Positions 5,168-54,401 of a stretch of DNA of 64,000 nt are shown here, one piece after another. The notes under the pieces were generated by a model that was given only the letters and a program-made list of their open reading frames with translations, was not told the DNA's origin and ran no database searches. Made by a program: the position numbers and the translations under genes. The DNA comes from Sphingomonadales bacterium. Lineage in GTDB: Bacteria; Bacteroidota; Bacteroidia; UBA7662. Each line of letters starts with the position of its first letter. The stretch's first letter is position 1. The stretch covers positions 5,115-69,114 of the forward strand of contig VHAX01000006.1 of assembly GCA_016872215.1 (NCBI GenBank), given 5' to 3'.

Positions 5168-8100
5168 ATGCAGCACCCATACCCCCTCAAAAATTCAGAA
5201 TGTCGAAACAGTGCCCTCAGGGGATTGTTATTGATGCTTCTTGCTCTCTACATCCCCAGCTATTCAGAGGCTCAGCCCCACTTTCCTTACAACGGAGTGC
5301 GCGATAGTCGTCCCGCCATATGGTATCTGAGCGGGGCAACGGTCATTAAATCGGCGGGCGACACCCTCAGAGATGGGGTTGTGGTGATCCGAAACGGACG
5401 AATAGAAGCGGTGGGTAAGCAAATACCCAAACCGACTGATGCCCGTGTGGTGGATCTGAAAGGAAAATTTGTGTACCCCGCATTCCTTGAGCCCGCGGCC
5501 AATTATGGGATGGATTCTCTGAAAACCCAGCGGTCACCCAAAGGATCGCGCCGCGAAGAAAGCCCTGTGCTGTTGCCCGAACGAGAGGGCGCCTGGAACG
5601 CCAATGATGCCATCCGGGCCGATCAAAGCGCTGCGGAGTTGTTTGTTGTGAAGTCGGAGGAGGCCGAAAAGTGGCGAAAGGCGGGATATGGGGCTGTGCT
5701 CACCCATCCCCGCGATGGAATTATGCGCGGCACCGGTGCGTGGGTGTCGACCGCTGACGGGCCGGAAGGCTCCGCCCTCCTGTTGCCATCGGCCAGTACG
5801 CATTACAGCTTCGATAAGGGAAGCAGCCGGCAGGATTACCCCTCATCGCTTATGGGCAGTATTGCCCTTTTGCGACAAACACATTATGATTTGCAGTGGT
5901 ACACACGGCAGGAAGCGGTGGGTAGGGTGTATGATCAGGTGCTCGACGCCATGCAGCGCACGGCATCACTCCCCAAGGTGTTCGAAACCCCCCGTAAGTA
6001 TGATGTTCTTCGTGTGGCTTCCATCGCCAAGGAATTTGGATTCCCCTTTGTGGCAACCGGAACAGGGGAGGAATACCAGTACATTCAAGACATTAAATCC
6101 ACAGGAGCGACGCTGTTGCTGCCCCTCAATTTCCCTGAACCTATGGATGTTCAGGACCCCTTCGATGCGCGAGAGGCCTCCCTATCGGCCATGATGCACT
6201 GGGAGATGGCCCCCGGAAACCCAGCCGTGGTGTACAGGGCGGGGGTCCCATTTGCAATAACGGGGAATGGACTAAAATCACCGGATGAGCTGCTGCCACG
6301 TTTGCGGACGGCCATTGAGCGTGGACTACCAGCAACTGCAGCATTGGAGGCCCTCACCCTGGCACCGGCCCGATTGTTCGGCGCCGGGCAATGGATGGGG
6401 AAGATTGAGAAGGGATATTTGGGGAATATCATTGTGTGTTCGCACCCCCTGTTTGATCCCGAAAACCAGATTATTGAGACCTGGACATCGGGGATTCCAT
6501 ACAACAACATCAAAGAAGAAATAAAGGTGGATTTGAGGGGCATCTACCGGCTGAACCGGGTTGAATGGGCCCCCAATGATGGTTTGGGTAAGGTGACGCC
6601 TAAAGCCTCGGTCGCATCCACCGAAACTGTAGAAGGACTGAAGGGGATGCAGCTCGTTGTCGGCGGTAGTCGCGCCAACTACGAAGTCGGACTACGCAGC
6701 AGCGATACGGCAAAATCGGTGGGCATGAAAGTGCGCTATCGACAGGGATTTCTGAGTCTATCGGTGCAGGACAGTAGTGTGAGTGGCGCACAAATGATAC
6801 GCCTGAGCGCATGGCGGGATGGGGTAGCGGGACTAAACGCACGTCTGGAACTGCCCGACGGCAGCATTTGGCGACTCGGATTCGACTCCATAGCACCCCA
6901 CACGGCCGACACCACCACCAAGAAGGCTAAGTCAACTCCACCCCTTCCCGCCGAAATCATGCGGTATCCATTTGCGGACCTGGGGCATGAGGAGTCCCCT
7001 CGTCACACCAATCTCTTGATCAAAGGGGTCACCGTGTGGACCAGCAGCGAATCGGGAATAATCAAAGAGGCGGATGTGGCTGTGCGCGACGGGAAAATAC
7101 TGGCCATTCGTACGACCGCTACGACAGATCCTGCAAGCTTGTTTGGCAAGGGGGTCGAATTCAGCGTCCGTGAGGGGAAGGGACTACACCTGACCCCGGG
7201 AATAATCGACGAGCACAGCCACATTGCCATCACCAGAGGCGTGAACGAGGGCACACGAAGCATCACCGCTGAGGTCCGCATCGGCGATGTACTCAACCCC
7301 GACGACGTCAACATTTACCGACAGCTCGCGGGAGGCGTAACCACCGCCCAACTGCTGCACGGATCGGCCAATGCCATAGGTGGACAAAGCGCAATTGTGC
7401 AGATGCGCTGGGGCGTTACCCACCCCGACTCACTGAAATTTCGCGGCGCCCCCGGTTTCATAAAATTCGCTCTGGGCGAAAACGTTAAGCAATCCAATTG
7501 GGGCGACATACATGTGGTACGTTTTCCGCAGACTCGTATGGGTGTGGAGCAGGTTATGATGGACGGATTCCTCAGGGCGCGGGAATATGCCGAGAAACGC
7601 AAGACCCAGCCGCAGACGACCCGCCGCGACCTCACTCTCGATGCCTTGGTAGAGATCCTGCGTGCTGAGCGTTTCATAACATGCCACAGCTATGTGCAGA
7701 GCGAAATCAATATGCTCATGAAGATGGCCGACTCAATCGGATTCAAGGTCAATACCTTCACACACATTCTGGAGGGCTATAAAGTGGCCGATAAAATGAA
7801 GCAGCATGGGGTGTCGGCCTCCAGCTTTGCCGATTGGTGGGCCTACAAATACGAGGTTATCGACGCCATCCCCCACAATGCGGCCATCCTGCATCGCGTG
7901 GGGGTGAACGTGGCCATCAACTCCGACGATGCCGAGATGGCGCGTCGCTTAAATCAGGAGGCGGCCAAGACCGTGAAGTATGGCGGACTCACCGAGGAGC
8001 AGGCCCTGAGGACAGTCACAATCAACCCCGCCCGCGCCCTGCGTATCGACCACAAGGTGGGGAGCATAGAGGTGGGCAAGCAGGCCGATCTGGTGCTTTG

Positions 8101-8347
8101 GAGTGCCCATCCCCTCAGCATGTATGCCCGTCCGCTGCTCACCCTAATCGAAGGCATACCCTATTTTGATCTGAATCGTGATGAGGCGGCACAAATGAGC
8201 CGTGAGAGGGAGCGCCAACGGCTGATTGCGGAACTTCTGAAGGAAAAAGGAGAGGTTAAGGAGGGCAACAAGCCGCGGCGGATAATCGACCCGCAATGGC
8301 ATTGTGAAACCCTCGGTGAGGAGGGAGAAGCAGGTGTCGCCCACTGA
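5168..8347 (+). CDS. Secreted tandem-domain amidohydrolase family protein (degenerate N-terminal domain plus active C-terminal domain)
   Basis: Signal-like N-terminus. Two amidohydrolase-like modules: the first lacks the HxH metal motif (PAFLEPAANYG), the second has it (GIIDEHSHIAI). C-terminal ...NSDD..., INPARAL and GKQADLVLW motifs fit the metal-dependent hydrolase fold. Confidence 0.7.
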   Translation: MQHPYPLKNSECRNSALRGLLLMLLALYIPSYSEAQPHFPYNGVRDSRPAIWYLSGATVIKSAGDTLRDGVVVIRNGRIEAVGKQIPKPTDARVVDLKGKFVYPAFLEPAANYGMDSLKTQRSPKGSRREESPVLLPEREGAWNANDAIRADQSAAELFVVKSEEAEKWRKAGYGAVLTHPRDGIMRGTGAWVSTADGPEGSALLLPSASTHYSFDKGSSRQDYPSSLMGSIALLRQTHYDLQWYTRQEAVGRVYDQVLDAMQRTASLPKVFETPRKYDVLRVASIAKEFGFPFVATGTGEEYQYIQDIKSTGATLLLPLNFPEPMDVQDPFDAREASLSAMMHWEMAPGNPAVVYRAGVPFAITGNGLKSPDELLPRLRTAIERGLPATAALEALTLAPARLFGAGQWMGKIEKGYLGNIIVCSHPLFDPENQIIETWTSGIPYNNIKEEIKVDLRGIYRLNRVEWAPNDGLGKVTPKASVASTETVEGLKGMQLVVGGSRANYEVGLRSSDTAKSVGMKVRYRQGFLSLSVQDSSVSGAQMIRLSAWRDGVAGLNARLELPDGSIWRLGFDSIAPHTADTTTKKAKSTPPLPAEIMRYPFADLGHEESPRHTNLLIKGVTVWTSSESGIIKEADVAVRDGKILAIRTTATTDPASLFGKGVEFSVREGKGLHLTPGIIDEHSHIAITRGVNEGTRSITAEVRIGDVLNPDDVNIYRQLAGGVTTAQLLHGSANAIGGQSAIVQMRWGVTHPDSLKFRGAPGFIKFALGENVKQSNWGDIHVVRFPQTRMGVEQVMMDGFLRAREYAEKRKTQPQTTRRDLTLDALVEILRAERFITCHSYVQSEINMLMKMADSIGFKVNTFTHILEGYKVADKMKQHGVSASSFADWWAYKYEVIDAIPHNAAILHRVGVNVAINSDDAEMARRLNQEAAKTVKYGGLTEEQALRTVTINPARALRIDHKVGSIEVGKQADLVLWSAHPLSMYARPLLTLIEGIPYFDLNRDEAAQMSRERERQRLIAELLKEKGEVKEGNKPRRIIDPQWHCETLGEEGEAGVAH

Positions 8348-8372
8348 GGCTAATCAGCGATCGATCTCCTTT

Positions 8373-10841
8373 TCAACCCATGAGCCTGATGCGCAGACTC
8401 AGGCGGCGGGGCATGGAGGGACCGTATCGGTAAGACGCGTCCCTTACGGGCCCTACACTCAGGTCGTTTTGGTAGTTGTTCATACAGTTCTGGCACCCCA
8501 GTTCCGTGGCCATACGCAGTCGTGCACCTACTTTCCATAGTTTCTCGATCCACAAATCATGCTGACCCATGGCAGGGGTTCGCATGAGTGTCAATTCTCC
8601 TTGTGTGGTGGCATCCGTACGGGTTGTCCACATTGACCCGGTGAATTGCTGGTTGTACTGCAGCCACCACCCCCGGCTGAGGGCACGTCGTATGGTGAAG
8701 TAGCCACTCCACACCGGACAGCGAAGCATTTCCCGGCTCCACAACTCGCCATTCGAACCATTGGACAGGCGCAAGGTCGACTCATATCGGGACTTTTGCA
8801 GGCTAATGGATGCATCCCACTGCCAGCCGCCCCCCGCCACCGATCCTCGTGCCCCCAGCACCATTCCAAGCACCCGCGCATCGGGCCCATTCGATTTTTG
8901 CCAAATTATGGCGCCCCCCAATGCAGTGTCGAGATTGTTCAGCAGCAGGGGCCGCATCAAACGGGTATGAAAGCCCTCTGCGGTAATCATACAGTTGCTT
9001 TCGCCCTCCGCCAGTGCATATTCTGCCGTGATTGAATAGCCCACCGATCGCTCCTCGCGCAGTTGGGGCGACCAGCGTATGCTGCGTATAGAACCGCCCA
9101 CCAGCTCCACATGCAGGTCTTCGGTGAACACCTGAGGGGCGCGATAGCCACCGGACCGCACCAGAGATAGGGCCAAACGGTTTTCCGGAGCCTGCCAACG
9201 GATCGAACTCCGCCAAATTCCAGGTTGCCTTATATAGCTTATGATTACTCTGCCCGTATCTTGCCGAAATTCACCTGACAGGTTCACGCCGTCGCTCCGC
9301 CATCCCAGATGCAATCGCCATGATGGATGTGGTTGTCCCTCAACCTGCGCAAACCGGCTCCAGGTGAGCATTTGTTGCGCTATGCTTCGTTCCACCACAG
9401 GAAGGGCATCCGTCAAGTGTTTTCGGTTAAGCTCCGAACCCGCCAGCAGTCGCCAACCCGTAAAGAGACGGGTGTTCCATCGGAAACCAGTCTGTGTAAT
9501 CTGTTCATTCGACTGTCCATACTGGCTTATGTGACTGTCATTCCAGCCCGACCATACGCCCATCGGGCCCGTCTCTCGTCCGGTGCCGGAATGGGGCGGA
9601 GCTAGGCTATCACCCGAACCGCCGTAGAATGCCTTTCGTTGCGCCGCCTGCCGCGATAGGTAGAACCGGGCCTCGCGGTCGGTGAGCTCGTTGCGGTATG
9701 TGGCCTCGAGGTGACCCGAAAGGGATCGCTGGAGGATCTCTTCAGTGAGGCGTGCCTGTGGCGCAGCTACATACCAGTCGCTCCCTCCACGCCGTTCCTC
9801 TTCAATGGCGAGGCTGTTTAGACGGATGTTCCAGGTGCGTGACAGGCGCTTCTCTATCAAAAATCCTGTGGATGTGCCCCTCAGTCGCGCCACCTCGCTG
9901 AATCCATCGCCATCGTGGTCGTAGGGGGAGCGCAAACGGTGGTTGATGAAAGCCGTTGCGCTTGTCGGCCGCTTGTGAATCTTGTCGCGGCCCGTGGTAG
10001 GTTGCGGTCGTTGGGCCCAATCGGCATGCACACGCCAGAGGTGGTCGTCTGCACTTCCCCTATGCAGGATCGACGATTGCTGGAGCGCCCCCCAGCCCCG
10101 TTCTTGCGCCCTGCGTGTCACCACATTCACCACTCCACCCACGGCGTTTGCTGCGTAGGCAGCGGATCCTCCCCCCCTGAGCACTTCAATCCGGTCGATC
10201 AGGGCAGTCGGCAGGTGGTCGAGCCCATACGCCGTGTTGAGTCCACCCACGAGCGATTGCCCGTCGATCAATATCTGGGTGTACGGACCAGCCAGTCCGT
10301 TCAGTCGAACCTGAGTGTATCCACAGGTCTGGCAGTTGTTCTCTACCTGCACACCCGGTGTGTAGGGCAATGCCTCACCCAAATGGGTGGCGTTGACCTG
10401 TTCAATCCGCCGCGCGTCGATCGATTTGACCTCGGCCGGTGCACCGCAACTAATGTCTATCGCACTTTCAATCTGAACCTCTTCCAACTCTACCACTGCG
10501 GGTCGCAGGGTCACCGAAACGCCCTGGCAACCCCTATCACCCAGATCCAGGCGCAGGGTTTGGTAGCCAACGCTTCTGAAAATCAGTTGTTTTGGAGGAT
10601 GTTGACTCTGCAATTGAAACACCCCGCCGCCGTCGGTCGTGGTGGCAGCGCCCGTAGATGTTTGAACGCTTGCCGCTGGTGCGGGTATGGAATCGATTCG
10701 TTCGCCTATGTTTATGCGCAGCCAGACGCGGCCCGAACAATCAGACCCCGTCGCAGCTTGTTGCCCACTCACCTGACTGATCTGGGTCATCAACAGCCCC
10801 GCAAGCAAGCCGATGTAACGGTATGAGATCCCTCTGAGCAT
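8373..10841 (-). CDS. TonB-dependent outer-membrane receptor with N-terminal carboxypeptidase-regulatory-like domain
   Basis: Signal peptide, CarbopepD_reg-like segment, plug motifs (IDRIEVLRGGGSAAYAANAVGGVVNVVTRR) and a long beta-barrel region. Confidence 0.75.
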   Translation of the reverse strand: MLRGISYRYIGLLAGLLMTQISQVSGQQAATGSDCSGRVWLRINIGERIDSIPAPAASVQTSTGAATTTDGGGVFQLQSQHPPKQLIFRSVGYQTLRLDLGDRGCQGVSVTLRPAVVELEEVQIESAIDISCGAPAEVKSIDARRIEQVNATHLGEALPYTPGVQVENNCQTCGYTQVRLNGLAGPYTQILIDGQSLVGGLNTAYGLDHLPTALIDRIEVLRGGGSAAYAANAVGGVVNVVTRRAQERGWGALQQSSILHRGSADDHLWRVHADWAQRPQPTTGRDKIHKRPTSATAFINHRLRSPYDHDGDGFSEVARLRGTSTGFLIEKRLSRTWNIRLNSLAIEEERRGGSDWYVAAPQARLTEEILQRSLSGHLEATYRNELTDREARFYLSRQAAQRKAFYGGSGDSLAPPHSGTGRETGPMGVWSGWNDSHISQYGQSNEQITQTGFRWNTRLFTGWRLLAGSELNRKHLTDALPVVERSIAQQMLTWSRFAQVEGQPHPSWRLHLGWRSDGVNLSGEFRQDTGRVIISYIRQPGIWRSSIRWQAPENRLALSLVRSGGYRAPQVFTEDLHVELVGGSIRSIRWSPQLREERSVGYSITAEYALAEGESNCMITAEGFHTRLMRPLLLNNLDTALGGAIIWQKSNGPDARVLGMVLGARGSVAGGGWQWDASISLQKSRYESTLRLSNGSNGELWSREMLRCPVWSGYFTIRRALSRGWWLQYNQQFTGSMWTTRTDATTQGELTLMRTPAMGQHDLWIEKLWKVGARLRMATELGCQNCMNNYQNDLSVGPVRDASYRYGPSMPRRLSLRIRLMG

Positions 10842-10850
10842 TCGGTTCGT

Positions 10851-10968
10851 GTGGTTCGTTTAGGTTGATGGCAGAAGTATAACTAGGTATCTGGTAAAAG
10901 TGGTTCGTTTAGGTTGATGGCAGAAGTACTATGGGCATCAGGTAAAAGTGGTTCGTTTAGGTTGATGG
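10851..10968. repeat. Three tandem direct repeats (period ~49 bp) upstream of the TonB-dependent receptor gene
   Basis: GTGGTTCGTTTAGGTTGATGGCAGAAGTA starts at 10851 and 10899. A third, partial copy GTGGTTCGTTTAGGTTGATGG starts at 10948. A TTCGGTTCGT half-unit also lies at 10841-10850. Confidence 0.7.
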
Positions 10969-11024
10969 TTTAACTGCAATGGGAATCCTCAAAAAGAGCG
11001 ATTTGACACTACAAAAATAGAACA

Positions 11025-11054
11025 ATCTAAATAAATATTTAGACTAATCTAAAT
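11025..11054. promoter_or_regulatory. Composite AT-rich palindromic operator-like site (ATCTAAAT-n-ATTTAGACTAATCTAAAT)
   Basis: Inverted half-sites ATCTAAAT / ATTTAGAc / ATCTAAAT. The core ATTTAGACTAATCTAA matches the palindrome at 53417-53433 upstream of the metal ABC operon in 15 of 16 positions. Confidence 0.35.
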
Positions 11055-11108: not shown

Positions 11109-11588
11109 ATGAAATGGTCATACAGGTTTTTTTTTCGGTGGATGATTTTCAGGCGTCTCCCCCTGGCCTGGCTGGCGGGACTGCAGTTACAATCGTGCGA
11201 TGATCTTAAGTGTACAATATCACTAAGACATGGGTGGTTGAACCAGAATCCCTTCCGTTCCATTTATTTTGCCGCCCTTATGATGGCCGGCGAAATGGCG
11301 GGTGGACTACCAGCACTCCTGCACATACGGAAAAGGGGCTACAACAGCGCCATGCTCGTGACCCAAATCGAGGCGTCGTTCTACAAAAAGGCTGTCGGAC
11401 GGATCACGTTCCGCTTCGAAGAAGTGGCCGCTATGAGGGCAGCAGTCGATGCCGCACAACTGTCGCCCGACCAGGGCGCCACCTACCTGGCCATCACCCG
11501 CGCATACAATGAGAGGGGCGACAAAATAGCCGAGGTGCGTGCCCTCTGGAGCTTCCGCGCCCGTAATGCTGACCGCCGGCAAAACTGA
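11109..11588 (+). CDS. DUF4442-like hotdog-fold (thioesterase superfamily) protein
   Basis: About 150 aa whose pattern (SIYFAALMMAGEMAGG ... ITFRFEE) resembles the DUF4442/PaaI-like hotdog family. The true start may be an internal Met. Confidence 0.4.
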   Translation: MKWSYRFFFRWMIFRRLPLAWLAGLQLQSCDDLKCTISLRHGWLNQNPFRSIYFAALMMAGEMAGGLPALLHIRKRGYNSAMLVTQIEASFYKKAVGRITFRFEEVAAMRAAVDAAQLSPDQGATYLAITRAYNERGDKIAEVRALWSFRARNADRRQN

Positions 11589-49694: not shown

Positions 49695-51233
49695 TTATTT
49701 TTGGGTGATCCGGCGGACCCGTACACGGGCGGCCAATGTGGTTGGTAGCGTATAGTCACCACGACTCGATTGCAAACAAACCACATCGGCTTGATCCGCA
49801 TAGATACGGGTGAAGGGCTGACCAGCGCTTATGCCTGCGTCCCACAATTTCAGTCGCACCCCTTCATCGGGTTGGGCGGATAGGATCATGCCCGCTTCGC
49901 CTGGTTCCAGTTCGGTGAGCCGGATAAACGATAAGTCTTCCAGATGCAGGTCATTTGTAGCCTCCCGTTGGGGAATTGAGGAGCCGTGTGGGTCGGTGAC
50001 CGGGTAACCCAGGCGGGCATCTACCGCATCGATAAAGCCTTGAGGCAGGCTATGTTCATAACGCTCGGCTTGCGCGTGCAGTTGACCTTCTGAAAGACCC
50101 ATTTCACGCCACAGATAGCTCTCCCACAAGCGATGCGCCCGAATAAGTTCGTAGGCGCGCTCGAGCCCGGCATCCGTCAACTTCCAACTCCCGCGACTCC
50201 CCTGCAATATCCATCCCCTGTTTTTCAATGATTGGAGACGCCTTAGCACAACACTTTCACTGAGGTTGAGTTTACCCGTGAGCGTATGAGTATCGAACTC
50301 TTCCCGTTCCTGTAGTTTTACGATCAGTTTCAGCACGTCCTCCAGTTGACGGGTGTGGCGGCGACTTCTACCGCGCAGGAATTGGGGGATGAGACCGTTA
50401 TCGGGGGAAAATAGTACGGCGAGCAGATATAGGACAAACGCCAGCAGGGTCATTGCAGGACCCGGAGGAAATTCCATCAGAATTGCTAGTATTAGTCCAC
50501 CCACGGCGGAAGCCACTCCGGTTGCGGCCGACAACAACAAAACCATGGGTAGTCGCTTGCTCAGGTGTAAGGCCGTCGACGCGGGTATGATGAGCATGGC
50601 CACTACCAGCACCACGCCCACCGACTGCAGGGAGGCAACTACAGCAAAGCTCAGGAGCAACATCATAAAATAATGCATCCAGTCGACCCGAATGCCGGAT
50701 GTTTGGGCGGTTACGACCTGGAAGGTGGTGATGAAGAAAAAGCGATAGAATAGTAGTATGCAGGCCACTGTGTATAATGCAATCAGTGCCCCAAGCCATA
50801 AATCCTCGTTGCCTATTCCCAAGACATTCCCGAACAGAAAGTCCTTCATGTCGAGGTGCACCCCCTGTCGGCGGGTTACCGCGGAAATTCCTATAATCCC
50901 CAGGGCGAACATGGCCGAGAATATGATACCGATCGCGGCATCTTCGCGGGCTTTGATTTTGCGCTGTAGCCAGGTGATCGCGGTGGCGGCTATAAGTCCC
51001 GCCACCACCGAACCTGTGAAAAAGGCGACCAGACTATGGCCGGCAATTAGAAATCCCGCCACAACACCAGGCAGGATAGCGTGCGACAAAGCGTCTCCGA
51101 TGAGCGACATATTTCTAAGTACTATGAACACCCCAAGCAGGCCACAGGTAATGCCAACGAGCACGGAGGCTAGCAGGGCACGTTGGGCGTAGGCCTGCTG
51201 CAGGATTTCGATGAGTTCACTATGGCCGTTCAT
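49695..51233 (-). CDS. Metal (Mn/Zn-type) ABC transporter permease fused to a C-terminal DtxR/MntR-family metal-dependent repressor domain
   Basis: N-terminal ~290 aa are an ABC-3 permease (8-9 TM helices; GDALSHAILPGV motif). The C-terminal ~220 aa carry a winged-HTH (…LKLIVKLQEREE…VLRRLQSLKNRGWI…), a DtxR-like dimerisation region and an SH3/FeoA-like tail. The ORF is continuous. Confidence 0.7.
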   Translation of the reverse strand: MNGHSELIEILQQAYAQRALLASVLVGITCGLLGVFIVLRNMSLIGDALSHAILPGVVAGFLIAGHSLVAFFTGSVVAGLIAATAITWLQRKIKAREDAAIGIIFSAMFALGIIGISAVTRRQGVHLDMKDFLFGNVLGIGNEDLWLGALIALYTVACILLFYRFFFITTFQVVTAQTSGIRVDWMHYFMMLLLSFAVVASLQSVGVVLVVAMLIIPASTALHLSKRLPMVLLLSAATGVASAVGGLILAILMEFPPGPAMTLLAFVLYLLAVLFSPDNGLIPQFLRGRSRRHTRQLEDVLKLIVKLQEREEFDTHTLTGKLNLSESVVLRRLQSLKNRGWILQGSRGSWKLTDAGLERAYELIRAHRLWESYLWREMGLSEGQLHAQAERYEHSLPQGFIDAVDARLGYPVTDPHGSSIPQREATNDLHLEDLSFIRLTELEPGEAGMILSAQPDEGVRLKLWDAGISAGQPFTRIYADQADVVCLQSSRGDYTLPTTLAARVRVRRITQK

Positions 51234-53407
51234 TTGGGTCCCAGTTGGTTGTGGTGAATCACTCCCGCTTCGTCGTAGAGTGAATGGAGTCCGGAATAGG
51301 TTTTCAGGATGTTCTCTTCGGTGAGGACTTCCTCGGGTCGACCAAATGCAATCAATCGCCGGTTGATGAGTATAATCTGATCAAAGATGCTGCGGGCACG
51401 GGTCAGATCATGGTGGATCATGAGCACCGATTTGCCAGTTTCCACCTCACGGCGCAGTACCTGTAGAATTTTATCCTCGGTAGATTGGTCAACTCCTGTG
51501 AAGGGCTCATCGAGCAGGTACCATTGGGGGCGTTGACAAAGTGTGCGGGCCAGAAATGCCCTTTGTTGTTGTCCACCGGAGAGGCCTCCAATCGGGCGGT
51601 GGCGCAGATGAAGGATGTCGAGTTCACTCATAGCTCGTTCCGCCTCCTGTAGGTCGTTTGGGTTGAGGAACTCCGCAGGCCGGTGGTGCGGATAGCGTCC
51701 CGTCAGCACCACATCTTGCACGGTGGCGGGAAAATTGAGGTCAATTTCCTCCCTTTGTGGCACATAGGCAACGCCTGTTGTGTGGTGGTGGAGGGGGTGG
51801 CCTGCCAGCTGCACACTCCCGCTGTCTGTTGATATGAGTCCGAGGGCCGACTTGAAGAGGGTGCTCTTTCCGGATCCATTGGGACCGACCAAGCCATAGA
51901 AGGCACCTGCGGGCAGGTCTAGCGAGAAATGCTGCAGTACGATGGTTTGTGAGTATGAGACCGATAGGCCGTCGATTTGCAGGGGGTGGCTGCGGAGGTC
52001 GATTTTCGGGGCGGGGCGTTGAATACGAAGGATCAGGAAAAAAACTGCGGCGGAAAAGCAGGCCACAATGATTAAAAGGAAAGCGAGGTTGCCGTTTTGT
52101 GAATGTTTGTCTGAGGGGTCTTCTGCTGGAATCGTTGTCTGGCCCTCCCTTTCCTGCAGCCCGCCGGAACCTGTTTCCTGTTGCGCACCGGAGCCTGTTT
52201 CCTGCAGCGCACCGGAACCTGTTTCCTGTTGCGCGCCGGAATCTATTCCCTCCGGTGCAAGTGCGGCTGCCAGTACCCTTGCGTTGTGTTTGAGCATGCT
52301 CAGGTATGTGTCGGCCCCGCTTCCTTTCGGGCCCATGCTGTCGGCATACAACTTTCCACCCAGGCGAATTCCACAATCTCGGGCCACTTGTTGCATGAGT
52401 CGCGGATTGAGTGTGGTTTCTACAAACAGCGCGGGTAGTTGCCGGCTTTGGATGTTTCTGATCATTTCCTGCAGGTCACCCGCCCGTATTTCAGCATCGG
52501 TAGTGGTGCCCAGTAGCGATAGAACCCCAAAGCCATAGCGGTTACCCATATAACGGAACGCATCGTGAGTGGTGGCGATGACCCGATGTTCGGGGGGAAT
52601 GGTCAACAAGATTCGCCGGATGTAGACGTCGGTTTTCTGAATTTGTTGATCATAATGATACCACCTGTTCACCAGTTCCTCTTGATGCTCGGGCAGAATG
52701 CTGATAAGAGCTTCGCAGATGTTGCGGGCGTATGCGCGGCCGTGTATGGGGTCCATCCAGGCGTGGGGGTCTACGCTTCCTGCGTGTTCAATGCTTTGGA
52801 TGGGCACGATTCCGCGTGTGGCGGTCACCCTAAGGGCTTGTTTACTGGTGTTTCGGATCAATTTTTCCAGCCAGCCCTCCAGTGTGAGTCCGTTTTCTAT
52901 GACCACGTCTGCCCTTGCCAGCAGCGCGGCGTCTCCAGGCGTGGCTTCATAGGTATGGGGGTCGGTACCTGTGGGGAGCAGCGACACCACTTCGCAGGCA
53001 TCACCGGCGAGGTTGGCGGTTATATCGGCCAGGAACCCGGTTGTGGCCACCACCAAGGGGCGTTGCCCCGGGCCTTTTTTGTTACTTGTTTGGTGGGATG
53101 TGGATTCAGGATTAGGAGAAGCAGACCGCTGTTTGGAATTTTGATCGAGTTGTTTTAAGGATGCGGATTGAGTGCCTTTACCATTTTGCCCGTTGGCATC
53201 TAGTGATGTGTTAAGGGTAATGTGCTCCATGTTGACGCTCGAAAACGTGTTATGAGCGTTACTGGAAGTGGTAGGCACATCGTTGCTTCTGGCGGTAACA
53301 ATAAATAGCGAGATTGTTAGAAATAGGATGAAAAATCGCCAGAATGACCGTAATCGGGGCATCCGCTTCAAAATAGGTCGACGAACAGCGCTCATGGGGA
53401 AATGCAA
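51230..53407 (-). CDS. Fusion of signal peptide, periplasmic metal-binding protein (ZnuA/MntA-like), repeat linker, single TM helix and ABC ATPase (ZnuC/MntB-like)
   Basis: Signal peptide (…FILFLTISLFIVTARS), S/N/T-rich extension and a cluster-A-1 SBP domain (LVVATTGFLADITANLAG…DPHAWMDP…). Then a linker with 3x ETGSGAQQ, a hydrophobic helix LAFLLIIVACFSAAVFFLIL, and an ABC NBD (GPNGSGKST, LSGGQQQRAFLAR, LLDEPFTGVD). It is a single 725-aa ORF. Confidence 0.7.
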   Translation of the reverse strand: MHFPMSAVRRPILKRMPRLRSFWRFFILFLTISLFIVTARSNDVPTTSSNAHNTFSSVNMEHITLNTSLDANGQNGKGTQSASLKQLDQNSKQRSASPNPESTSHQTSNKKGPGQRPLVVATTGFLADITANLAGDACEVVSLLPTGTDPHTYEATPGDAALLARADVVIENGLTLEGWLEKLIRNTSKQALRVTATRGIVPIQSIEHAGSVDPHAWMDPIHGRAYARNICEALISILPEHQEELVNRWYHYDQQIQKTDVYIRRILLTIPPEHRVIATTHDAFRYMGNRYGFGVLSLLGTTTDAEIRAGDLQEMIRNIQSRQLPALFVETTLNPRLMQQVARDCGIRLGGKLYADSMGPKGSGADTYLSMLKHNARVLAAALAPEGIDSGAQQETGSGALQETGSGAQQETGSGGLQEREGQTTIPAEDPSDKHSQNGNLAFLLIIVACFSAAVFFLILRIQRPAPKIDLRSHPLQIDGLSVSYSQTIVLQHFSLDLPAGAFYGLVGPNGSGKSTLFKSALGLISTDSGSVQLAGHPLHHHTTGVAYVPQREEIDLNFPATVQDVVLTGRYPHHRPAEFLNPNDLQEAERAMSELDILHLRHRPIGGLSGGQQQRAFLARTLCQRPQWYLLDEPFTGVDQSTEDKILQVLRREVETGKSVLMIHHDLTRARSIFDQIILINRRLIAFGRPEEVLTEENILKTYSGLHSLYDEAGVIHHNQLGPK
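52140..52262 (-). repeat. In-frame 21-bp x3 tandem repeat encoding the (ETGSGAQQ)-type linker of the SBP–ATPase fusion
   Basis: (ccggaacctgtttcctgttgcgcac)-like units repeated. The peptide is GAQQETGSGALQETGSGAQQETGSGGLQE. Confidence 0.6.
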
Positions 53408-53416
53408 AAATACAGA

Positions 53417-53433: not shown

Positions 53434-53792
53434 ATTTAATTTCGATGTGTCTTAAATCGCATAAGTTAAGTTTATTCACAAATGAAATTTTGGTATCCAA
53501 ACTCTTTCCGCAAATTCTGTGTTTATTTTGCGTATTCAAATTTCTACTGCTTATGTTCTTTTTCTTGCCGCCTTCACCCCCAGCCGCTCCTGTAGTCGTC
53601 AACGTTCTGGCTGTTGATCCACCCAAATCAGACGGACGGCTCCTGACTGGTGGTGTAAACCGTTACGCATCTCGCATCTTCCTCCCAGCCATTTGGGCTG
53701 TCGGAATACCTGCCATGCCTAGATCTTCCTTACCCAACTCCTTTAACGAATCCATCTTAAACCAACATATTCTTCATTCTAAATCCAATAAA

Positions 53793-54401
53793 ATGTCATT
53801 TGAATTACCTCCCCTCCCCTACGCCTACGACGCGCTGGAACCGCACATCGATTCATCCACCATGCAAATTCACCATGGTAAACACCACGCGGCTTACGTC
53901 AACAATCTAAATGCAGCCCTCACAGGAACGCCACATGAGGGCAAGTCACTCGAAGAGCTGATGTCGATCGTGAGTCAGTTGTCGCCCGCTGTTCGGAACA
54001 ATGGTGGCGGTCACTACAACCATAGCTTGTTCTGGACAGTTTTGTCGCCCAAAGGCAGTGGCGCCCCAACCGGAGAATTGGCCAACGCCATACAGCGTGA
54101 CTTCGGGTCTTTTGAGACTTTCAAAGAGAAGTTTGCGCAGGCCGCGGCCACACGTTTTGGTTCCGGATGGGCCTGGCTGTGCTCGGAAAAAGGAAAACTA
54201 TCGATTTGTAGTACGCCCAACCAAGACAATCCCCTGATGGATGTGGTTACGGATTGCAACGGCATTCCAGTATTGGGATTGGATGTATGGGAACACGCGT
54301 ACTATCTCAAATACCAGAACCGCCGCACCGACTACATATCAGCGTTCTGGAATGTGGTGAATTGGGATGAGGTCAGCCGACGATACGCTGCGGCACGCTA
54401 A
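53793..54401 (+). CDS. sodA: Fe/Mn-family superoxide dismutase
   Basis: [32 protein letters not shown]...[18 protein letters not shown]. The ORF-track entry 53445..54401 includes a spurious 5' extension, and the true start is the Met at 53793. Confidence 0.9.

Follow-up and report, generated by a model that had tools for sequence, protein, structure and literature searches.

Organization of the Importer Locus

A 64,000-nucleotide (nt) stretch of contig VHAX01000006.1 (GenBank assembly GCA_016872215.1, positions 5,115 to 69,114), in the following referred to as the window, was analyzed with regard to a predicted ATP-binding cassette (ABC) importer for divalent metals; all positions given below are those of the window unless a related locus is named. 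On the minus strand, the region 49695-53407 harbors two open reading frames (ORFs), namely 51230..53407 (gene 1), encoding 725 amino acids (aa) when read from a TTG codon, and 49695..51233 (gene 2), encoding 512 aa. The initial annotation of this DNA had described a metal importer packed into two fusion ORFs within this region, and both ORFs were recovered with the domains claimed for them. Gene 1 combines a substrate-binding protein (SBP) domain, a single transmembrane (TM) helix and the nucleotide-binding domain (NBD) of an ABC transporter on one chain, and gene 2 joins an ABC permease to a metalloregulator of the MntR/DtxR type. Since the E-values of the domain matches within the two long ORFs were so small, chance was excluded as their source. 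The locus probably encodes a complete, self-regulating divalent-metal ABC importer of the Tro/Mnt type on two translationally coupled polypeptides.

The true start codon of gene 1 is likely the ATG at position 53395, yielding a protein of 721 aa, since gene callers in three independent assemblies used this form. Residue numbers of gene 1 nevertheless refer to the 725-aa form throughout, unless 721-aa numbering is stated. The start codon of gene 2 shares the sequence ATGA with the stop codon of gene 1 (51230-51233), and this overlap suggests translational coupling of both genes. Features predicted for the locus and its surroundings are summarized in Table 1.

Table 1. Predicted features of the importer locus and of further sites within the window. 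Residue numbers refer to the respective gene product (gene 1: 725-aa form). pLDDT, predicted local distance difference test; pTM, predicted template modeling score; SOD, superoxide dismutase.
Feature	Position	Strand	Remarks
Mn-type SOD gene, divergent to gene 1	53790..54401	+	Pfam match; top solved matches almost all Mn-SODs
Candidate operator, perfect 14-bp palindrome TTAGACTAGTCTAA	53419..53432		6 nt upstream of the -7 box
Bacteroidota-type -7 element TATTTTTG	53405..53412	-	fits TAnnTTTG; 9 nt ahead of ATG 53395
Gene 1: SBP-TM-NBD fusion	51230..53395	-	721 aa (725 aa from TTG 53407); AlphaFold2 mean pLDDT 81
N-terminal hydrophobic segment (putative signal peptide), residues 19-39	53291..53353	-	hydropathy; helix 13-36 in the model; possible VTA/RS cleavage site
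Ser/Asn/Thr/Gln-rich low-complexity insert, residues 40-115	53063..53290	-	pLDDT <50; not conserved; not in ~580-aa homologs
ZnuA/TroA-family cluster A-I metal-binding domain	52262..53053	-	ligands His151, His215, His281, Asp356; Pfam ZnuA 1.6e-74
Disordered periplasmic linker, residues 383-440	52088..52261	-	pLDDT <50; holds the ETGSGAQQ repeats
Single TM helix, residues 441-459; RIQRPAPK on its C-terminal side (positive-inside)	52031..52087	-	hydropathy score 3.0; helix in the AlphaFold2 model
ABC NBD, residues 476-707	51287..51982	-	Walker A K514, signature S610, Walker B D633/E634 intact
Gene 2: permease-repressor fusion	49695..51233	-	512 aa; AlphaFold2 mean pLDDT 84.8, pTM 0.76
ABC-3 permease domain, residues 14-275, 8 predicted TM helices	50409..51194	-	Pfam ABC-3 2.6e-70; hydropathy
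Arg/Lys-rich connector, residues 276-297	50343..50408	-	predicted helix continuous with the first repressor helix
MntR/DtxR-type repressor module, residues 298-508	49710..50342	-	winged helix, metal-binding dimerization domain, SH3-like domain
Second operator-like site TTAGACTAATCTAA	11039-11052 (11018..11052 including a degenerate copy 22 nt upstream)		motif scan; ~42 kb away

The SBP-TM-NBD Fusion Protein

For the gene 1 product, the order of elements proposed initially (signal peptide, cluster A-I SBP, low-complexity linker, single TM helix and cytoplasmic NBD) was supported by Pfam matches, hydropathy and an AlphaFold2 model. The Pfam profile ZnuA (PF01297) matched residues 119-382 over its entire length (model positions 1-263 of 263; 251 bits compared to a cutoff of 29), and the closest solved relative of this domain is TroA from Treponema pallidum (1TOA; 1e-51), followed by AztC. 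The residues H151, H215, H281 and D356 align with the TroA ligands H68, H133, H199 and D279, and each of the four is kept in all 112 homologs. The binding site is thus of the His3Asp type known from TroA and AztC, as opposed to the His2-Glu-Asp type of PsaA and MntC.

Homologs of gene 1 encode short, typical signal peptides immediately ahead of the first SBP strand. Since a signal-like segment at the N-terminus is combined with a downstream TM helix showing a positive-inside bias, the SBP domain is predicted to reside in the periplasm. If a periplasmic receptor and a cytoplasmic ATPase share one chain, the chain has to cross the membrane an odd number of times. Exactly one hydrophobic segment was found in 110 of 113 homologs, at a distance of 46-50 residues (in outliers up to 83) from the Walker A motif that follows, with Lys and Arg being more frequent behind the helix (3.2) than in front of it (1.4).

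The ATPase part was matched by the profile ABC_tran (PF00005; residues 491-636; E 7e-29) and contains the motifs GPNGSGKST, LSGGQ and LLDEP. None of the 112 homologs deviates at K514, S610, D633 or E634. Best NCBIfam models were those for Deinococcus MntA (7e-65) and AztA (5.5e-51), whose equivalog cutoffs were both missed (218.9 versus 400 bits and 172.9 versus 220 bits, respectively). Judged from its sequence, the NBD is a member of the Mn/Zn/Fe-chelate subfamily and an equivalog of no named transporter.

The AlphaFold2 model comprises a folded SBP domain, the TM helix and a folded NBD, with disordered regions at residues 40-104 and 389-432 (721-aa numbering). The ETGSGAQQ repeats reported earlier for the linker go back to a 24-nt unit, present in 3.8 tandem copies at positions 52150-52241. 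In the window protein and its relatives of 69-78% identity, approximately 75 disordered residues follow the signal peptide, and approximately 55 residues including ETGSGAQQ precede the TM helix, whereas most gene 1 homologs possess almost nothing at either of these two places. Since the spacer between the SBP domain and the TM helix comprises only ~10-15 residues in most relatives, the two disordered segments are regarded as clade-specific expansions.

The Permease-Repressor Fusion Protein

In gene 2, the ABC-3 profile PF00950 aligned at model positions 3-257 of 258 (E-value as in Table 1), and the top Foldseek match of the permease was the PsaBC permease of Streptococcus pneumoniae (7KYP; 1.7e-15). 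Because of the eight predicted TM helices, the C-terminus of the permease is expected on the cytoplasmic side of the membrane. The part following the permease had been described as DtxR/MntR-like, in agreement with matches to Fe_dep_repr_C (PF02742; residues 353-422; 3.7e-21; 75.3 bits versus a cutoff of 27; model positions 1-70 of 70) and to the NCBIfam model for the Thermus-type MntR, which spans residues 298-508 and is covered nearly completely. Accordingly, the ABC-3 permease, the DtxR dimerization domain and the SH3-like domain named in the initial annotation were all supported, and its winged helix was seen only by NCBIfam, AlphaFold2 and Foldseek, whereas the N-terminal helix-turn-helix profile of Pfam (PF01325) had no match in gene 2 at E<=0.01.

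In the AlphaFold2 model, residues 315-352 form three consecutive helices followed by a beta hairpin. Using the 215-225 C-terminal residues, Foldseek identified SloR, ScaR, MntR, IdeR and DtxR over their full lengths, with 213-227 columns in the alignments to SloR, ScaR and IdeR. Moreover, phmmer matches in the PDB comprised MntR of Mycobacterium tuberculosis, MtsR, SloR and ScaR. A BLASTP comparison of the repressor module with an approximate sequence of Bacillus subtilis MntR gave no meaningful alignment. Based on phmmer alignments to ScaR, SloR and M. tuberculosis MntR and on an alignment to DtxR, the residues H367, E371 and H386 correspond to H79, E83 and H98 of DtxR, and D299, E390, E393 and H394 to M10, C102, E105 and H106. 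All seven ligands are invariant in 116 of 116 homologs.

The connector between TM helix 8 and the repressor module contains a nearly invariant Pro277 and Gly280, and its richness in Arg and Lys is conserved. A free repressor arising from an internal translation start was considered and rejected, the connector being without a conserved Met. Permease-repressor proteins of only 412-444 aa are encoded at four related loci (L007 5707-6945, L008 5967-7301, L091 5841-7169 and L092 5852-7141), and these, as deduced from their lengths, are probably missing the C-terminal SH3-like domain in part or entirely. The occurrence of short and long versions parallels the difference between the TroR proteins of T. 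pallidum and Treponema denticola.

Conservation and Distribution of the Fusions

Homologs of both fusions were recovered in large numbers. At least 112 clusters (90% identity) contain ZnuA and ABC_tran on one protein of 555-720 aa, with identities down to 37%, and more than 2000 significant matches were obtained for the permease-repressor protein, the best 120 of which are nearly all ~500 aa long and carry ABC-3 together with Fe_dep_repr_C. An exhaustive HMMER search over 1.84 billion representatives returned only about a dozen 50%-identity clusters featuring SBP and NBD; all lower-ranked matches were single-domain proteins. Furthermore, an identical 721-aa protein was present in independent ENA, Logan and JGI assemblies. 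Since the SBP ligands, the NBD motifs and the repressor ligands are invariant among the 112 and 116 homologs, all four modules are considered to be under selection.

The claim that both junctions lie in one continuous frame held, the fusions being conserved across many independent assemblies. The explanation that a sequencing, assembly or frameshift error wrongly joined conventional separate genes for SBP, ATPase, permease and regulator is therefore of practically negligible probability. It could draw on the existence of the order SBP, NBD and permease as separate genes outside the Bacteroidota and on the NCBI annotation of the same contig, in which only a 355-aa ATPase is called. This explanation is opposed by the identical protein in independent assemblies, by the retention of the fusion in more than 110 clusters of down to 37% identity, by hundreds of full-length permease-repressor homologs, and by the TM helix, which is needed solely for the topology of the fusion and is conserved in 110 of 113 homologs.

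Genes 1 and 2 are adjacent in ten loci with unrelated flanks, among them the related loci L004-L008, L010 and L091-L093. Because the neighborhoods differ otherwise, the gene pair is regarded as a self-contained module. At locus L009 (4001-6631), the SBP-TM-NBD homolog with the greatest divergence (38% identity) was found together with an ordinary permease of 291 aa without a repressor. Since an SBP-NBD fusion occurs there beside an unfused permease, the two fusions are separable and arose or were lost independently.

When contigs were scanned with patterns for a generic Walker A and SBP motif, the matches listed were all conventional genes for SBPs and NBDs, spread over many phyla. As far as can be judged from gene order, the arrangement of SBP, NBD and permease as separate genes outside the Bacteroidota is the obvious precursor of the fusion. 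The source names of the fused SBP-NBD proteins all refer to Bacteroidota, except for one protein (P0044), whose metagenome-assembled genome (MAG) is labeled 'Sphingomonadales'. The 'Sphingomonadales' label of the MAG containing the window contig is contradicted by a SusC/SusD pair and by all relatives, which likewise indicate Bacteroidota, and mis-binning or mislabeling of the MAG is likely. In the public version of this MAG, MBM3918452.1 represents the 355-aa 'metal ABC transporter ATP-binding protein' and MBM3918451.1, the permease-repressor protein, is a 'hypothetical protein'. In general, database entries name members of the family 'zinc ABC transporter substrate-binding protein', 'ATP-binding protein' (truncated) or 'hypothetical protein'.

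Further compressed domain combinations were observed among database proteins of this transporter family. One chain of 869 aa (P0273) carries ZnuA, ABC-3, Fe_dep_repr_C and FeoA, another of 589 aa (P0266) combines ZnuA and ABC-3, and a third of 653 aa (P0275) features a tandem double ZnuA.

Candidate Operator and Promoter

The palindrome TTAGACTAGTCTAA follows the pattern TTAG-N6-CTAA and begins 38 nt upstream of the ATG of gene 1, its 3' end being given as 13 nt upstream. Its arms resemble those of DtxR/IdeR boxes, which read TTAGG and CCTAA. Promoters of the Bacteroidota feature a -7 element of the consensus TAnnTTTG, and such a box follows the palindrome not only in the window but also in related loci. 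The strict pattern occurs within 100 nt upstream of the gene 1 start in nine of the ten repressor-fused loci, and the tenth (L005) features a variant with one mismatch. No TTAG-N6-CTAA was found upstream of the operon at L009, whose permease carries no repressor. Within each locus of ~10 kb, the pattern is essentially a single occurrence. Assuming a frequency of ~0.7% per 100 nt of AT-rich sequence, the chance of observing this distribution is far below 1e-10 according to our own arithmetic. In the whole 64-kb window, TTAG-N6-CTAA occurs twice, in both cases in intergenic regions, compared to 0.33 expected occurrences.

Metal Specificity

Metal identity was evaluated from the sensor, the transporter and the gene neighborhood. 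In the sensor, M10 and C102 of DtxR have D299 and E390 as their counterparts, the Asp/Glu pair of the MntR type. Introduction of this pair into DtxR (M10D/C102E) results in a response to Mn, although high Fe can elicit a response of this variant as well (PMC2628430). The nearest relatives of the regulator are Mn sensors, namely M. tuberculosis MntR, MtsR, SloR, ScaR and DR2539, and the Deinococcus MntA and MntC models of NCBIfam are among the best transporter matches.

The Fe/Mn-SOD gene that had been noted divergently next door was confirmed by its Pfam match, with its start moved from 53445 to ~53790. The listed ORF of 318 aa starts at 53445, that is 13 nt from the operator, and several gene callers kept this long form. 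A real N-terminal extension was rejected, the stretch 53445-53789 being of low GC content and not conserved in frame relative to L010. Because the 115-aa extension is not conserved in this relative of 77% identity, the start was placed at position 53790, where the protein begins with MSFELPP. A SOD gene is also adjacent to the importer genes in L006, L008, L010, L091 and L093, and an AhpC/TSA-like gene is adjacent to the L009 operon. The SOD is likely a client enzyme for Mn. The hint at Mn that was originally taken from the SOD is thus strengthened, given that its best solved matches are nearly all Mn-SODs and that the sensor possesses the MntR-type ligand pair.

Taken with some reserve, Mn(II) appears to be the most likely substrate and signal of the system. 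The alternative that the same architecture serves Zn(II), in line with AztABCD and TroA, or else Fe(II), which has been claimed for the Chlamydia YtgABCD/YtgR system, is a live though rather unlikely one. The observations speaking against Mn(II) concern both transporter and sensor. The His3Asp site of the SBP is of the same type as that of TroA, which binds Mn as well as Zn, and that of the Zn-specific AztC; moreover, the best NCBIfam matches of SBP and permease were AztC and AztB, with AztA among the best matches of the ATPase. Since dissociation constants of TroA are 7 nM for Mn and 22 nM for Zn (PMC3851752), the binding site alone leaves the metal undecided. In addition, a response to Fe has been reported for YtgR, with one study also describing a response to Zn (PMC5599777), and the DtxR variant mentioned above responds to high Fe. 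Because the SBP site is His3Asp instead of His2-Glu-Asp, metal identity is less certain than the SOD neighbor suggests. Against Zn and Fe stand the invariance of the MntR-type Asp/Glu pair in 116 of 116 homologs, the Mn sensors among the nearest regulator structures, the linkage of a Mn-type SOD in several lineages and, as read from the sequence, an SBP without a His-rich loop of the ZnuA kind. Furthermore, Zn importers are normally controlled by Zur and not by sensors of the DtxR family.

Comparison to Known Transport Systems

The initial annotation regarded the architecture as possibly uncharacterized, which applies to one of the two fusions. A permease-repressor fusion is known from Chlamydia trachomatis, where YtgC-YtgR (CT069) autoregulates ytgABCD and is cleaved to release YtgR, and similar fusions have been reported in 11 phyla (PMC5599777). 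Compared by description, both the chlamydial protein and gene 2 consist of an ABC-3/TroC-like permease with a C-terminal DtxR/TroR-like repressor and are encoded in an importer operon. The Ytg system differs in its separate SBP (YtgA) and ATPase (YtgB) and its two permeases (YtgC and YtgD), whereas SBP and ATPase are one protein here and a single permease is present. Moreover, YtgR is described as Fe-dependent, whereas the ligand pattern of gene 2 is MntR-like, and cleavage, shown for YtgC, is a possible step for the gene 2 protein. A contig assigned to Waddliaceae (L070) was considered as a source of a Chlamydiota ytg operon and was rejected, the match being an unrelated ABC-F protein.

The Treponema troABCDR operon shares with the window locus the order SBP, ATPase, permease and DtxR-type regulator, the close relationship between TroA and the SBP domain including the His3Asp site, and a palindrome at the promoter, which is the operator in tro (PMC2628430) and a candidate operator in the window. 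Additionally, the SH3-like domain of the gene 2 repressor has its counterpart in T. denticola TroR. In contrast, the Tro system consists of five separate polypeptides with two permeases, its 18-bp operator differs in sequence, and TroR features Asn at the position of DtxR M10 (PMC2628430), where gene 2 encodes Asp. Similarities to PsaBCA, MntABC and SitABCD comprise the permease fold, the NBD subfamily and the link to oxidative stress, and MntR, ScaR, SloR and MtsR share the ligand pattern of the regulator and provide its closest structures. Binding proteins of PsaBCA, MntABC and SitABCD differ by their His2-Glu-Asp sites and are free or lipid-anchored, and the regulators of these systems are encoded by separate, usually unlinked genes.

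Tethering of a receptor to the translocator, with two or more receptors per complex, is known from OpuA and GlnPQ (PMC8276074, PMC8025302 and PMC11065425). In these type I importers, the substrate-binding domain (SBD) is fused to the transmembrane domain, whereas it is attached to the ATPase by a dedicated extra TM helix in gene 1 and the permease is separate. Deduced from its domain order, the gene 1 protein is expected to work like a tethered-receptor importer while standing outside the OpuA/GlnPQ architecture class. Cyanobacterial NrtC and CmpC also combine an ABC ATPase and an SBP-homologous domain on one polypeptide (PMC10945777). However, their NBD precedes the SBP-like domain, signal peptide and TM helix are missing, and the SBP-like domain is cytoplasmic and regulatory, substrate capture being the task of a separate periplasmic NrtA (PMC10945777). 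In contrast, the fused SBP domain in gene 1 is the only SBP of the system and is predicted to be periplasmic. The term 'SBD-NBD' in PMC8144104 refers to gene order and not to a fusion.

Full-text literature searches revealed no description of an SBP-TM-NBD chain, although an unindexed paper is possible. Joining of an SBP to an ATPase through one membrane helix therefore seems to be undescribed, which leaves this part of the earlier novelty claim standing. In textbook ABC importers, a tethered receptor domain, if there is any, is attached to the membrane domain. A receptor linked to the motor by a TM helix of its own, as retained throughout a Bacteroidota family, would represent a different solution for tethering. 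Moreover, the two genes fix the ratio of receptor, motor, channel and sensor at 1:1:1:1, making the system an attractive minimal model for the structure and mechanism of cluster A-I/type II-like metal importers.

Proposed Mode of Transport and Regulation

The following mode of action is proposed for the importer. Gene 1 would export its TroA-like domain to the periplasm, where the domain would stay tethered to its own cytoplasmic ATPase by one TM helix, and gene 2 would provide the eight-TM permease, to whose cytoplasmic C-terminus a full metalloregulator of the MntR/DtxR type is attached. Because only a single permease gene is present, the working complex is assumed to be symmetric, (SBP-TM-NBD)2(permease-repressor)2, which would place two tethered receptors on each pump as in OpuA. 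Upon a rise of cytoplasmic Mn(II), the repressor module would bind the metal, dimerize and occupy the TTAG-N6-CTAA site next to the -7 box; Fe(II) and Zn(II) are less likely signals. Occupancy would shut off the operon and probably also act at the distant site beside a gene for a TonB-dependent receptor. The predicted operator allows the proposal that Mn homeostasis in uncultured Bacteroidota involves a small regulon comprising the importer and possibly the TonB-dependent receptor.

Concerning the state in which the repressor acts, the analogy with Chlamydia YtgC-YtgR favors proteolytic release from the permease, for which chances are considered to be about even. Action of the repressor while still anchored in the membrane is the main alternative and is possible, at clearly lower probability. 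The initial annotation had called the repressor membrane-tethered; its fusion to the permease stands, and the tethered form may be only a precursor state, YtgC-YtgR being cleaved. Several findings weigh against the mode of regulation proposed above. In the AlphaFold2 model, the connector between TM helix 8 and the repressor is a confident, rigid helix (residues 281-309, pLDDT ~92-94) running from just after TM helix 8 into the repressor, and not a flexible, cleavable linker, which argues against easy proteolytic release. Furthermore, members of the permease-repressor family show little conservation in the recognition helix. Together with the missing PF01325 match, this means that predicted DNA binding rests on the fold and on the conserved palindrome. 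Finally, the operators in L005 and L092 lie farther from the start codon (83-95 nt).

The same findings leave space for other modes of regulation. The DtxR-like module might act mainly post-translationally, and not or not exclusively as a DNA-binding repressor, the metal-dependent association of two modules within a pump or between pumps locking the transporter as in the trans-inhibition of MetNI and ModBC. Mechanical coupling is suggested by the short and confidently helical connector to TM helix 8, the weakly conserved recognition helix and the absence of a PF01325 match would fit as well, and regulatory domains on subunits of ABC importers are well known (PMC10945777). This explanation is nevertheless very unlikely, considering that the palindrome with its DtxR-like TTAG and CTAA arms tracks the fused module and overlaps the promoter, that the whole three-domain fold of the repressor including the winged helix is retained, and that the Chlamydia homolog is a proven repressor (PMC5599777). 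In a further version, assessed as distinctly unlikely, the repressor would never be released; its modules would detect Mn as it leaves the pore on import, gate the pump by trans-inhibition and hold the operator DNA at the membrane, and the TM helix of gene 1 would add a ninth, structural helix to each half-transporter. Such gating is conceivable because the connector is predicted to be rigid and repressors of the DtxR family are dimeric. If true, uptake, flux control and transcription would be coupled in one machine of two polypeptides.

Irrespective of the state in which the repressor acts, the family described here represents free-living relatives of the Chlamydia fusion. Questions on the protease, the cleavage signal and the tethered versus the released form are hard to study for YtgC-YtgR in an obligate intracellular pathogen and would be tractable in these relatives.

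Additional Operator-Like Sites and Their Neighborhood

The second operator-like site of the window, TTAGACTAATCTAA, is located between a gene for a TonB-dependent receptor (8373..10841, minus strand) and an ORF of the DUF4442 family (11109..11588, plus strand). Deduced from its sequence, it may mark another member of this metal regulon. At L093 (2236-2249), an extra TTAGACTGCGCTAA site was observed between convergent genes close to the SOD gene, ~1.7 kb upstream of the operon; this occurrence may be due to chance.

The window receptor showed a weak match to the NCBIfam model 'TonB-dependent receptor, CU motif-type'. A plug-domain motif N-C-x-x-C is present in this protein (NCQTCGY) as well as in a TonB-dependent receptor encoded near the L009 operon (7407-9686, minus strand; NCSICNT). 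Orthology of both receptors was considered and rejected. Since they share only ~28% identity, confined to the N-terminal part, they provide no evidence of a conserved partnership with the importer. Immediately upstream of the listed start of the window receptor gene and overlapping it, three tandem direct repeats of 48-49 nt (core GTGGTTCGTTTAGGTTGATGG) were found at positions 10837-10981, and the true start of this gene may lie further downstream than listed.

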